Assembly (NCBI GenBank): GCA_964016885.1
Contig: OZ024751.1
Span: forward strand, 11,656,001-11,720,000
From: Eledone cirrhosa
Taxonomy: Eukaryota
Reading direction: 5' to 3'
Length of the DNA stretch: 64,000 nucleotides
Part shown: positions 19,206 through 54,972 of the stretch, piece by piece
How positions within the stretch are numbered: position 1 is the first letter of the stretch
Layout: every line of letters starts with the position of its first letter
Translations under genes and position numbers: made by a program
The notes under the pieces: model-generated
What the model saw: the letters and a program-made list of their open reading frames with translations, nothing else
Databases searched by the model: none
Told to the model about the DNA's origin: nothing

Positions 19206-19668
19206 TACAATATTAAATAAATGGAAAACTATATTTATAAAACCATATTTATTTCATTATATATATTTCGGGGATATCATATTAACAATATGCTATGCCT
19301 TCATCAGACAAAATACAATATAAACAGTTTTATAGATAAATAGATTCGACATACCGTAATAACACCGACTTCATTTGAAGAGGTTTACGCTGCCAGCGTA
19401 AACCTCTTCAAATGAAGTCGGTGTTATTACGGTATGTCGAATCTATTTATCTATAAAACTGTTTATATTGTATTTTGTCTGATGAAGGCATAGCATATTG
19501 TTAATATGATATCCCCGAAATATATATAATGAAATAAATATGGTTTTATAAATATAGTTTTCCATTTATTTAATATTGTAAATATACTCCAAATATTTGT
19601 CGAGTGCTTTTATATCAGTTATAAATATTTACTAGTTGTAACCCAACAATTTTAAATATAACTTTACA
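19206..19668. mobile_element. Apparently perfect palindrome (187-bp arms, 1-nt spacer at 19393) of PLE family P-A 3' end, HHR motif in both arms
   Basis: 19206-19392 is the reverse complement of 19394-19580; CTGATGA at 19479, GAAA at 19517. Confidence 0.93.
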
Positions 19669-19711
19669 TATATATATATATATATATATATATATATATG
19701 TGTGTGTGTGT

Positions 19712-20125
19712 AGAGGTTATATTTAATTTGTTGGGATACAAGCAAAATATTTTTATAACAGATATAAAGCACGCAACATATTATTGGAGTAAATATACAG
19801 TATATTAACAAATGGAAATTATATTTATAAAATCAAATTTATTTCATTATACATATTTCAAGGGCCACGAAGTTAAACTATGGTGCGCTTAAAAATGCAT
19901 ACCCTTAAAATGCATACCCTTAAAAAATGCAACCATTCTGGTTTGATTCCAGCCAGAATGGTTGCATTTTTTAAGAGTATGTCAATATTTATTTATAAAA
20001 CTAACCTATATTATATTTTATCTGATGAAAGCGCAACATAGTTTACCTTGGTGGCCCTTGAAATATGTATAATGAAATAAATTTGGTTTTATAAATATAG
20101 TTTCCATTTGTTAATATATTGTATA
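19712..20125. mobile_element. Fold-back of PLE family P-A (apex ~19947), HHR motif at 20014-20079
   Basis: Inverted arms with a deletion in the left arm; homologous to 29130-29280. Confidence 0.88.
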
Positions 20126-20616
20126 TATAAATATATATATATATATATAACGAAGGAAATGTGGTAAGGAACCAGGTGGACCATATCGCACGAAAGTACT
20201 CAATACTTAGGGTAGTAGGGTGGGTAATAGGAACGAGTAGGACCCCGACGGCTGAGCTCAAGCCGTTTCGACGGCTAAATTTGTCGAGTGCTTTATATCA
20301 GTTATAAAAATATTTACTTGTTGTATCCCAACAATTTTAAATAGTACTTTTGCATATATATATATATATGTTAGCAATAGGCATGTCTCTTCTGATTCTC
20401 GTAAGCCACGATATATGAAACCTCCGTACTTCTTTGGTCGCTGTAATGCCTTCTGTGTGCAATAAAATCGAAACAAAACAAATATAATCAAAGTTTGATA
20501 AAATTAATGGGACTCTGCATCAGTAAAATCACAGTGACTTGCATCTTACCTCTTTAAACAATTTAGTTTTCAATATAAAGGGTGGCGCAAATCTTGTGCA
20601 CAAGACTAATTATTTT

Positions 20617-20790
20617 AGGGTTGGCAGTATCGGTAGAGTGTCGGACACCATGCTTTGACGCATAGAGTTACGGCCCTTGGCATTCTGAGTTCAAAACTCG
20701 CCGAGGTTAACTTTCGGGGTCGATAAAATAAAGTACCAGTAATGCACTGGGTAATTGCTAGCCTTGTGCCAAAAGAAGAAACAATTAATT
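20617..20790 (+). mobile_element. SINE family S2
   Basis: Near copy of 35785-35975 with an internal deletion. Confidence 0.88.
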
Positions 20791-21545
20791 TATGAATATC
20801 CCATTTACTGACAAAAATAACAAATTTCAACATATTGTGGCAAAGTTTTATTTTACTCCTGCACATATATCCATGCTCCTCCCTGTACATATATCCATGT
20901 ATGTTACACGTAACTCCAAGTCGATTCAGAGGAGCTCTGCAATGACATAAGACATTTACAGAGAACCTTAGTCTATGACTCCTACAAAATATTGACGTAT
21001 ATAGGCAGTTTGATATTTGTGGGAGTTGGGGAACCAGCTGACTATAAAAGATAATGGCTCACTGTACTTAGTCAAGTTCATATATTTGGAGAGTTTCGTA
21101 TAAAGACGGAAACAGAAAATATATTTATATGAATTGGCAGAATATTTAGAGCTTTGCAGCATTTAGTTAAGGTTCTTTACCGTTTGATTTCAATTCCCAC
21201 TGAGGCAAATTTTTTTTTACATTGTTCCTGGGCCGATGAGATAATATGCCTGTTAAGTACTGGGGTGTGTATCATCTGCTTTTCCTACCACCAAATTTGT
21301 TGACCTTCTCGTTAAATTAGACATCATTTGTATAGTGTTAATAGATTTAATATGGGTTAGGAACAGCAATCTAAATCAAATGCATTGAGTAAAAATTATT
21401 ACTTGTCATTGATTAACACAAAGTTGATTTGTTTCTCGTTACGAACGGCAATGCTCGAGTTTGTAGCTGAGCTGTCGAGGGCGGAGGTCGAGGACATGTG
21501 AAAGTCCCTGTGGAACAAGGGTAATTATTTACCTCCCTCGAACAG

Positions 21546-21696
21546 GAAGATGATCATCCCATTTCCCGTTCTTACCACAACCACACAAAGTCAGAGGCCG
21601 ACAGGCATTACTTCCTACGATAGACCGTTCGCTTCAAGGTTCCTTCTGATGATGTAGTTGAAGACGGAGTGCCGGGAGAAATGAAACGACATGAGA
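21546..21696 (+). other. Candidate non-coding or pseudo exon
   Basis: Acceptor ttttacctccctcgaacAG and donor AGA|GTGAGT; unique CpG-containing sequence; best frame has one TAG (21621). Confidence 0.3.
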
Positions 21697-52172: not shown

Positions 52173-52299
52173 CTATATATTAAATATATATATATAGAGA
52201 GAGAGAGTCCATAAATAGCCATCGAAATGGCTTGAGCTGCTCTGCTGTCGGGGTCTTGAACATTTTCTTTTTTCTTTTCTTTCTTCTTTTTTCTTTATT

Positions 52300-52575
52300 T
52301 ATCTCTCCCTTTCTTTATCCACGTTTCTCTCTATCTCTCCGTATTTTTACTTCTCCTTAACACAACAACTTACTAAAATAAACAAACCACTATCCTGATG
52401 TCGTCCAAAAGTAATGGTCGCATTTTGAAAGGGTACGTCAATGTTTATTTATAAAACTGGTATATATTGTATTTTGTCTGATGAAGGCATATCATAATTT
52501 AACTTGGTATCCTTGAAATATGTATAATGAAATAAATATGGTTTTATAAATATAGTTTCCATTTGTTAATATCGT
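52300..52575 (+). mobile_element. PLE family P-A 3' fragment with HHR (52470-52534)
   Basis: Homologous to 29130-29275. Confidence 0.82.
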
Positions 52576-53025
52576 ATATATATATGTATGTGTGTGTGTG
52601 TGCGTGTGTGCGTGTGTGTGTGTGTGTGTGTGTGTACTACTTAGAAATATATGTATGTTTATATATATATAAACATACATTTAGACATATGTATATACAT
52701 GCATGTACGTATGTATGCGCGTATGCATATGTATCTATATGTGTATGTGTGTGGGTTTGCGTATAGACATACATACACACTCACACACACACACACACAC
52801 ACACACACAGCCACCAAGTAACCCACATTCACACACCGTTACACACAAACCACCGTGGTAGACTTCATTATAAAGTAAAACCATTATTGTGTTACAGTTA
52901 CCACACCCACAATACTCATCTAACTTCTTTCAAACATCAGAACATTTCTTTCTCATTTTCATCAATGAGACATGTCCCTGAACAATTAACAGTCTCAGTA
53001 TTAGTATTTCATTGGTTACAGACAT

Positions 53026-53225
53026 GTTGTTTTTGTTGTTGTTGCTGCTGTTGTTGTTGTTGCTGTTGTTGTTGTTGCTGTTGTTGTTGTTGATGTTGTT
53101 GGTGTTGTTGTTGCTGTTGTTGTTGTTGTTATTGATGTTGTTGTTGTTGTTGTTGTTGTTGTTGTTGTCGTCGTTGTTGTTCCTGTTGTTATTATTATCG
53201 TCGTCGCTGTCGTTGTTGTTGGTTT
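53026..53225. repeat. (TTG)n microsatellite
   Basis: Direct reading. Confidence 0.95.
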
Positions 53226-54549
53226 TATCATTTGTATTATTACTGTTATTTTTTTTTTCTTTTAATTTCTCCTCTGTAAGATATTAACCTCTCTACTTCT
53301 AGAACCATCAAAAGAACTTCTCTTTTCTTTCTCGCAGCATTTTTTTCTTTTCTTGTTTGGCTTAATTCCTCCTTCGATTTGATCCCATCAGCTCAATTAT
53401 TATCATTGTTATTGTTATTAATAGTATTATTATTAGTGGTAGTAGTTCGTGTTATTACTCTTATCATTATTATCATTATTAGTAATAGTATTATTATTAA
53501 TACCGTTATTATGTTTTTATCATTATCCTCACCATCACTATTATTATATGTTATATTATTTAATTTTTTGTTTTTCAAGTTTTTTCTGTTTTTTGTTAGT
53601 AGCCCAATCTGGTGGCTATAGCTTTTCGTTTTATCCTTTATTTTTATCAATTTCCTATTTTGTTTCTTTTATCTTAGAAAGTGTAATTAGGGATACTAGT
53701 TGTATTTATTTTACTGTTTCTTGGCTATTTTTTCCCTCCATTTTAACAATATTATTTTAATTAGGTCAGCATCCAATTAATTTTCCACAACCAATACACC
53801 TTCAAATGCATCTTTTAAAAATTTATTTTATTTTATCTTCCTCATGTTTTTCGTCTACCTCCCTGCTATATTCCATTTTCAACTTTCATTCATTCTTTTT
53901 TCCTTCCTTATTGTTTTTCTTGTTGTGGTTCTTCTTCTCCCTCCTCTTCTTCACCCTCATCTACTATCAATATGCTTATTAACAGTAGTAGTAATATTAG
54001 TAGTGTAATTCATTTTGAATATTAAAATTATTCCTTATTCATCATTCCCTTTGTCACATATTTCCTTTGGACCAAGGGTTTCTCATTTTTTTTTGCGTCT
54101 TCGCCCTCCGTGAACGATTCAAAACTTGTACGCTTTAGCGCCATCGAGTGACACTCTAGTTTCTATTTTTATTATTTGTCATAATTATCTGAGTTCCCAC
54201 TTCTAGAGTTCCGTTTCAAATATTGCCTATTGCGGTGGAAATACAGCTTTTGTGAGATAATTTGACATACCATTAATTGATTCATTCATTATTTAACAAA
54301 ACTGTCACCAATTCATTCTGATCTCAAAATTGTGTAATGCATTAGAAATATCAAAGTTTTAAACTGTAAGAATGCAGTAGGGATATACGTGATATAAGCG
54401 TGCCTTGGGTATTTTGTACTTGATGGATCCCATCTTCTCTCTCTCTCTCAGAATGAATCGGGTCTCTTACATGTTATATATATATATATATATATATATA
54501 TATATATATATATATATATATATATATATATATATATATATATATATAT

Positions 54550-54972
54550 TTAAAAGTTAAACAAAGTAATACATCAAATAATGAGTTTTACAATAGATTG
54601 GAGGCACTCAACAGCTAAAAAAAAAGGTTTTCCAGAGTTATTAATATTAATTCAAAATATTAACAAAATAGATATTCTTGTGATCAAGTATATTTTATTA
54701 TACATATTTCAGAGGTACTGAGTTAAGTTCAACAGTACGTCCTCATCAGATAAAATAAGATGATGCATGACATACCCTACCCTGACATAGTAGATGGTTA
54801 AGACTACCATGACTAAATCTTAACCATCTACTATGTCAGGGTATGTCATGCATCATCTTATTTTATCTGATGAGGACGTACTGTTGAACTTAACTCAGTA
54901 CCTCTGAAATATGTATAATAAAATACACTTGATCACAAGAATATCTATTTTGTTAATATTTTGAATTAATAT
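54550..54972. mobile_element. Fold-back of a P-A-related subfamily (arms ~54644-54802 and 54817-54972), HHR in both arms
   Basis: tattttat-CTGATGA-ggacgtactg..cagtacctct-GAAA-tatgtat-A-ataaaata (54859-54925). Confidence 0.92.

Follow-up and report, generated by a model that had tools for sequence, protein, structure and literature searches.

An unpaired cytosine at a fixed place in stem II of hammerhead motifs from Hydra-clade Penelope-like retrotransposons of Eledone cirrhosa, and its possible role

Why would a ribozyme stem whose base pairs have been exchanged repeatedly keep one cytosine unpaired, always at the same place? The question is raised by a 64,000-nt stretch of the Eledone cirrhosa genome (GCA_964016885.1, contig OZ024751.1, positions 11,656,001 to 11,720,000 of the forward strand; hereafter, the window), where a preliminary description had pointed to five diverged hammerhead copies sharing a C-C mismatch in stem II. 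Our analysis confirmed, from sequence, that these motifs are type I hammerheads with predicted self-cleavage, which Hydra-clade Penelope-like element (PLE) retrotransposons carry in their terminal repeat. Penelope-element hammerheads are slow ribozymes; one of them cuts only with its protein, and cutting proved dispensable for insertion in vitro. The roughly 10^5 copies in this genome amount to a natural mutagenesis set, in which all stems covary around a single non-catalytic cytosine that is itself invariant and unpaired, offering a single-nucleotide handle on protein activation or on a new contact between stems I and II.

All five copies of the preliminary description are real, and their cores start exactly where it placed them (19479, 20022, 29173, 52478, and 54867). 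Each follows the order stem I, CTGATGA, stem II, GAA, ATATRTAT, A17, and stem I, of 8 bp in every case as first reported, and in 5/5 a C opposes a C at position 4 of stem II. At 19471..19536 (+; subfamily AGGCATAGC), the 5' base of this position, C10.4, is 19489 and faces C 19513, with a predicted cut after A19528; the corresponding cytosines and predicted cuts are 20032/20056 and after 20071 in the copy at 20014..20079 (+; subfamily AAGCGCA), 29183/29206 and after 29221 at 29165..29229 (+; part of the 3' terminal repeat of a Hydra element truncated at its 5' end), 52488/52511 and after 52526 at 52470..52534 (+; subfamily AGGCATA), and 54877/54902 and after 54917 at 54859..54925 (+; subfamily GGACGTACTG). 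The count itself was too low, since the window holds eight complete copies, and those with cores at 13490 (+), 19307 (-), and 54749 (-) had been overlooked. The first (13486..13543, +) is a related hammerhead with stem III AUGAUCAU, a 4-bp stem I, and C-C at position 4. The other two (19250..19315 and 54691..54757, both -) lie in the left arms of head-to-head inverted insertions between (TA)n, at 19200..19586 (99.2% self-complementary; the left arm stops at the short 3' end and the right arm carries the tail) and 54644..54972 (93.5%). A third palindrome, 19790-20129, keeps in its left arm the 3' half of a motif whose CUGAUGA is gone (19836..19901, -). A covariance model of 26 rows, including the five window copies, recovered seven strong window copies, the relative (13478-13551), and this half copy.

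The hammerhead core (C3 U4 G5 A6 N7 G8 A9, G12 A13 A14, A15.1-U16.1, H17) was invariant in 26/26 rows and in all window copies, and the architecture is that of type I, with three covariation-supported helices and helix I open-ended. The label of "minimal" hammerhead, in the sense of Cervera, does not apply to these motifs, which lack both the extra nucleotide and a fixed G10.1-C11.1. Stem II does stay largely paired, as had been claimed, with exceptions: in the copy at 19479, the first pair is A-C and position 8 is G-A, and in that at 20022, position 7 is A-G. ViennaRNA predicted the in-register base of stem II with a probability of only 0.01 for 52478 and of 0.24-0.43 for 19479; with flanks included, stem I formed with a probability of 0.02 or less in 4/5 window monomers. 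No hammerhead family appeared among the 16 Rfam matches at E<=10 over 54600-54965, nor among the 150 listed of 463 matches for the whole window; since Rfam misses the motifs, an abundant class of ribozymes goes unannotated in this genome.

The assignment to PLE hammerheads, already proposed, is supported by linkage to a Hydra open reading frame (ORF) with reverse transcriptase (RT) and GIY-YIG endonuclease. In the window, the broken 3' part of this ORF (26802..27828, +), with frameshifts and stops, retains the RT thumb, a CxCX5C linker, and the endonuclease with CxxC and CxH, its Pfam GIY-YIG match being weak (E=0.037). An inverted 5'-truncated piece of the same ORF abuts the element (26262..26801, -), and an AT-rich 3' untranslated region of ~1.35 kb (27829..29164, +), colinear in many other copies, separates the ORF from the 29173 hammerhead. 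The query 27250-29285 returned 60 genome matches from 40 scored candidates, many of them full-span at 81-92%, and the hammerhead lay 1.30-1.40 kb past the ORF in 11 separate copies from this subfamily. Across families, the motif lies 1.0-2.1 kb downstream of a Hydra ORF, with (TA)n following ~50 nt later. Locus L391 represents one full unit, with two hammerheads on the same strand at a distance of 3,772 nt, of which the first precedes the ATG by ~175 nt; a single ORF with RT and C-terminal GIY-YIG is present at L033 (606-aa frame), L034, and L391, and the window holds a remnant of it. At L064, L106, and L437, the ORF adjoins a hammerhead in what looks like nesting of one insertion in another, and these three loci were left out of the links.

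Hydra-clade elements are marked by DKT, CxCX5C, and CxxC/CxH, with no CCHH (Craig 2021, PMC8557442, section 11). We assigned the element to this clade because DKT, CxCX5C, CxxC, and CxH are present (as SDKT, CNCRNKSNC, CSLC, and CKH, along with LRWQAF, and RWK in family C DNA) and CCHH, by eye, is absent from the endonuclease. The insertion habit is likewise that of the clade, with (TA)n targets and tandem or inverted pseudo-long terminal repeats (pseudo-LTRs). A Neptune-clade origin does not fit the linker, CxCX5C instead of CX2-5CxxC, nor the lack of CCHH by eye. Endonucleases linked to hammerheads fall into lineages A, B, C, and I, mutually 37-50% identical, family C being one locus, in a tree of this genome's own copies without reference Hydra proteins. 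No match to the element protein was found among solved protein structures. The window also contains a second, distant Hydra element (32182-34330; 27-41% identity to family A), a possible outgroup, whose terminal hammerhead, at 34276, is decayed and combines a very short stem II with a ACAATTGT-type palindrome, and a third Hydra remnant at 45355-45858 (-). At L165:660-2950, a family-C element with an internal deletion and inverted plus tandem repeats may be a non-autonomous derivative.

The five window copies are five subfamilies within one Hydra lineage group and therefore cannot, on their own, show selection; the genome-wide families do. A pattern search of 3.0 Gb gave ~116,000 matches for the hammerhead classes, and a strict pattern gave 35,043 exact matches against 0 for the reversed control. 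In the AUAURUAU class (pattern CTGANGA...GAAATATRTATH; W opposite G left uncounted), position 4 was C-C in 75,480 matches (control 3) and C-A or C-U in 4,795; a 5' base other than C occurred in 4,942, by eye mostly CpG decay or second CTGANGA words inside loops. A G on the 3' side was found in 409 matches, and the 100 of these listed were single mutants or off-register matches scattered over all subfamilies. C-A has been amplified in two subfamilies, one of them with 241 matches, about nine in ten of the 100 listed being C-A. Among fetched copies of this class, 193/222 were C-C and 4/222 Watson-Crick, a rate that is not unbiased, given that copies picked as mutants were left out and some searches required C-C or C-x. 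The AUGAUCAU stem III group (5,652 matches) had C-C in 14/16 fetched copies, and the ATSBVSAT class (24,786 matches, mostly AUGCGCAU) had C-U in 23/23; C-G accounted for only 30 of the about 24,800 matches of the AUGYRCAU class. The rule is thus C10.4 opposite C, U, or A, with G never amplified opposite it, and what is conserved is a 5' C10.4 left without a pairing partner, rather than a C-C pair. The mismatch first described stands as regards this fixed, unpaired cytosine; the base opposite, given as C, can across the genome also be U (in a family of ~24,000 copies) or A.

Extension of the rule to hammerheads with a GAAAC..GT stem III failed (635 matches vs 1,929 in the control). The window also contains three further families of hammerhead-like motifs in which stem II is normally paired, with cores at 9396 (-), 12790 (+), 29533 (-), 11850 (+), and 39117 (-)/39124 (+), the last two overlapping on opposite strands. 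In family C (L310, L333), stem II is very long, and some subfamilies add a second C-C mismatch at position 11. Searches for relatives elsewhere returned no match folding as a hammerhead, either in metagenomic sequences (0/117 matches in 116 loci, in one of 64 parts scanned) or in viral ones (0/20 matches).

Covariation in a larger alignment, which the preliminary description had set as one test of its claim, was found around position 4. In 26 representatives (21 loci hand-picked from clusters plus the five window copies), position 4 was paired in none, and positions 2, 3, 5, 6, and 7 were paired in 24-26, each with 6-14 both-side changes. The covariation score was reached by 0/500 shuffles, and slid registers all scored far lower, the counts being inflated by kinship among the rows, as the tool itself warns. 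RNAalifold, unaided, found eight of eight stem II pairs with both-side changes and skipped exactly the C-C column. Mapped on a 27-cluster tree, position 4 shows one change of its 5' base, compared with 3-6 at neighbouring positions; this change belongs to an old family and is likely CpG decay, though it might mark a true U-C subfamily. The 3' base changed three times (neighbours 3-7), never to a pairing base. Subfamilies of the A, B, C, and I lineages all retain the unpaired C despite 37-50% endonuclease identity. Position 1 is G-C in 8/27 clusters and otherwise U-U, G-U, A-U, A-A, or G-A. Since closing the pair at position 4 would stabilise stem II by 4-7 kcal/mol, the open state has been kept at a cost. 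Three particular arrangements of the cytosines were compared by eye, and each fails across families: a G in stem I serving the C as Watson-Crick partner, the 3' C pairing with G8, and a bulged C in a slipped register.

Stem III is an 8-nt palindrome in which AUAURUAU has been swapped for AUGAUCAU, AUGCGCAU, and AUGUGCAU by compensated changes. The four palindromes remain self-complementary, in agreement with the dimer-type stem III of the preliminary description, cleavage itself being predicted. These compensated changes support dimer cleavage, and so we infer that the hammerheads would cut as dimers. In the monomer, the pairing probability of stem III is 0.0, and the self-duplex has -2 to -10.5 kcal/mol. 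A palindromic helix III allowing dimers has been described for PLE hammerheads (Cervera 2014, PMC4209133), and the dimer reading agrees with a review (Weinberg 2019, PMC6765202). Tandem same-strand pairs exist at L391, L165 (1,314 nt apart), and L402. The window copies, in turn, are best read as dead fossils, and selection as having worked on past master elements, because none has a same-strand tandem partner within its own element and transcripts through the window palindromes would fold into long hairpins (-177 to -297 kcal/mol). Hence, the earlier suggestion that the structure is under selection holds for master elements genome-wide, through covariation, and not for the window copies themselves.

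Insertions end in (TA)n either ~50 or ~140 nt past the predicted cut site. Between the short and the long ends lies an optional tail (19580..19667, +), whose ACTCC...GAGTGC hairpin (19586-19607) is a candidate RT binding or start signal; the hairpin is also found in L298, L064, L070, L016, and L121, with variable loop length and otherwise unalignable tail sequence. Short head-to-head insertions (19200-19667, 54644-54972, L006, L025, L057) carry a short end on one arm and a tailed end on the other, and look as if both target strands had been primed at two RT start sites. No common 5' start site was seen as a peak, in a measure confounded by palindromes. An AATAAA hexamer stands just 3' of a predicted cut site in an example copy (19533..19538, +), and AWTAAA occurs within 26 nt after the predicted cut in 25/27 clusters, at offsets of 0-20 nt, against 5.3 expected from shuffles and 0/27 in the next 26 nt, bearing in mind that it overlaps stem I in AT-rich families and that the clusters are related. 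A polyadenylation signal, which predicted cleavage would strip from upstream RNA, is a lead only. Moreover, the splice-donor-like GGTATGTC/GGTACGTC is conserved ~40-45 nt before the core in A families (29133-29140 in the window). An intron spanning the hammerhead, from GGTATGT upstream of it to TTTATATCAG in the tail, was considered and rejected as a general trait, the donor occurring in A families only and the acceptor being unconserved.

What, then, might the unpaired C10.4 do? We favour, with a probability of about 0.45, the reading that the hammerheads, as predicted dimer cutters, present this cytosine to the element's own RT-endonuclease, which on contact would activate a sluggish ribozyme. 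In a tandem transcript, two hammerheads would pair via the 8-nt palindrome and cut after AUH, the RT-endonuclease binding the unpaired cytosine, folding the otherwise slow ribozyme, and switching it on; the protein would read the distorted helix N-R-N-C-R-Y. Reverse transcription would begin past the uncut motif at two sites (~+50 and ~+140), generating short and tailed ends, and this internal start would copy the motif into every insertion. Protein contact was ranked first because it has a precedent, the anole Poseidon hammerhead, which cuts only when its protein is present (Frangieh 2024, PMC11167929), and because it needs no RNA partner.

Several points weigh against this reading. C-G is found here in 15/25 published Hydra hammerheads (Craig 2021, PMC8557442, File S2); therefore, the C may be ancestral and the unpaired state not needed everywhere. 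The Poseidon precedent comes from another PLE clade, and in that system insertion in vitro did not require hammerhead cleavage and none of the RNA reads ended at the cut site (Frangieh 2024, PMC11167929). Furthermore, the 3' base at position 4 changed about as often as its neighbours, the absence of G, coming from only ~3 fixed changes, is weak when taken alone, and the clusters are related, so that the counts are of non-independent events. A protein-gated switch, in which the cut site stands directly ahead of a conserved polyadenylation signal and RT bound at the unpaired C toggles a polyadenylated message into cut or circular RNA and feeds back on element expression, seems unlikely.

A possible, though doubtful, alternative makes the unpaired C an RNA tertiary dock for U- or A-rich nucleotides beyond stem I, stem II being too long for a contact between loops 1 and 2. 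In canonical hammerheads whose helix II has 4 bp, loop 2 begins at position 4 (Cervera 2014, PMC4209133), contacts between stems I and II require exact geometry (Perreault 2011, PMC3088659), and here the distance from the C to the core is constant although loop length varies widely; the strand 3' of stem I is, moreover, A/U-rich in all families. However, no conserved G lies at a fixed place in stem I to pair with the C, and with a stem I of 4-8 bp and an AWTAAA offset of 0-20 nt, no fixed partner covaries.

It is improbable that the mismatch acts as a mere brake, weakening the base of stem II so that a slow ribozyme lets full-length RNA survive. The 4-7 kcal/mol that closure would gain, the similarly loose first pair of stem II (U-U, A-A, A-C, G-U), the acceptance of C, U, and A opposite C10.4, and the known slowness of PLE hammerheads (Cervera 2014, PMC4209133) would all be expected of a brake; yet any nearby mismatch would serve, and the one observed invariably has C as its 5' base and position 4 as its site. 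Given this fixed base identity, recognition by the element's protein fits better than mere weakening. The least likely account, that the mismatch is unselected as RNA structure, being inherited from one ancestor or its C kept for a DNA-level role such as a repeat promoter, draws on the shared ancestry of all families, on the frequency of C in Hydra hammerheads of other animals (Craig 2021, PMC8557442, File S2), and on the promoter expected within the terminal repeat (Weinberg 2019, PMC6765202), but it sits poorly with flanking pairs that changed doubly and repeatedly over 50-63% protein divergence and with C-to-G mutants that readily arise (409 copies) and were never amplified.

Apart from these elements, the window contains a long CAG-rich tandem array (4900-6730; periods of 25, 28, 56, and 136 bp) and a fragment of a non-LTR reverse transcriptase (50713-51210; RTE/CR1-like by eye; Pfam RVT_1, E=4.9e-7). 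Repeat-finder output was dominated by microsatellites, and no tandem array covering the motifs was found among the 150 listed of 200 tandem-repeat rows, the hammerhead copies being dispersed or inverted.

Hammerheads in Hydra elements have already been published. We found no paper describing a C-C mismatch in stem II or at position 4, in a survey of texts that did not extend to figures or to Lunse 2017, which may describe such variants, and no cryo-EM study. Non-LTR retrozymes (Li 2026, bioRxiv 10.64898/2026.07.22.740005) likewise derive type I hammerheads from PLE terminal repeats, but form tandem monomer arrays, whereas here the insertions are dispersed, or inverted and truncated; identity with them was rejected, no tandem hammerhead units occurring in the same 150 listed rows. 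The PLE hammerheads of Cervera and de la Pena (2014, PMC4209133) share the CUGANGA/GAAA core, a long helix II, and a palindromic helix III, and also come in large covarying families with single and opposite-strand copies. Unlike their minimal type, the motifs described here have no extra nucleotide after A9 and no fixed G10.1-C11.1, and are set apart by a palindrome of 8 nt and by an internal mismatch that is fixed; in the D. virilis variant described there, helix II carries a bulge, not a C-H mismatch.

Poseidon_Ac (Frangieh 2024, PMC11167929) resembles the present elements in having two 3' ends, with a tail between them, downstream of its hammerhead, in insertions that keep the uncut motif, and in AT-rich targets. 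Indeed, the short and tailed ends found here match the two sites at which RT starts internally in that anole element. Poseidon_Ac belongs, however, to another clade, its ORF starts inside stem II rather than ~175 nt past the predicted cut, and protein assistance, which was shown there, would here be supposed by analogy; the parts of its text used for comparison describe no mismatch.

The closest relatives are the Hydra elements of Craig 2021 (PMC8557442, File S2), including Hydra-1_oBim. These share DKT, CxCX5C, and CxxC/CxH without CCHH, the (TA)n targets, inverted 5'-truncated copies, a tail, and a type I hammerhead near the 3' end, with a self-complementary stem III (~4+4 nt) and a loose first pair of stem II. 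The unit is longer here (~3.8 kb vs <3 kb), as is stem II (8 to >15 bp), which is broken at position 4. None of the File S2 families has an AUAURUAU stem III, and the hammerhead of Hydra-1_oBim differs. By eye, 24/25 of them pair position 4 and none has C-C, so that the open state appears as a derived trait of the present clade; the 15/25 with C-G indicate, in turn, that the C itself predates it.

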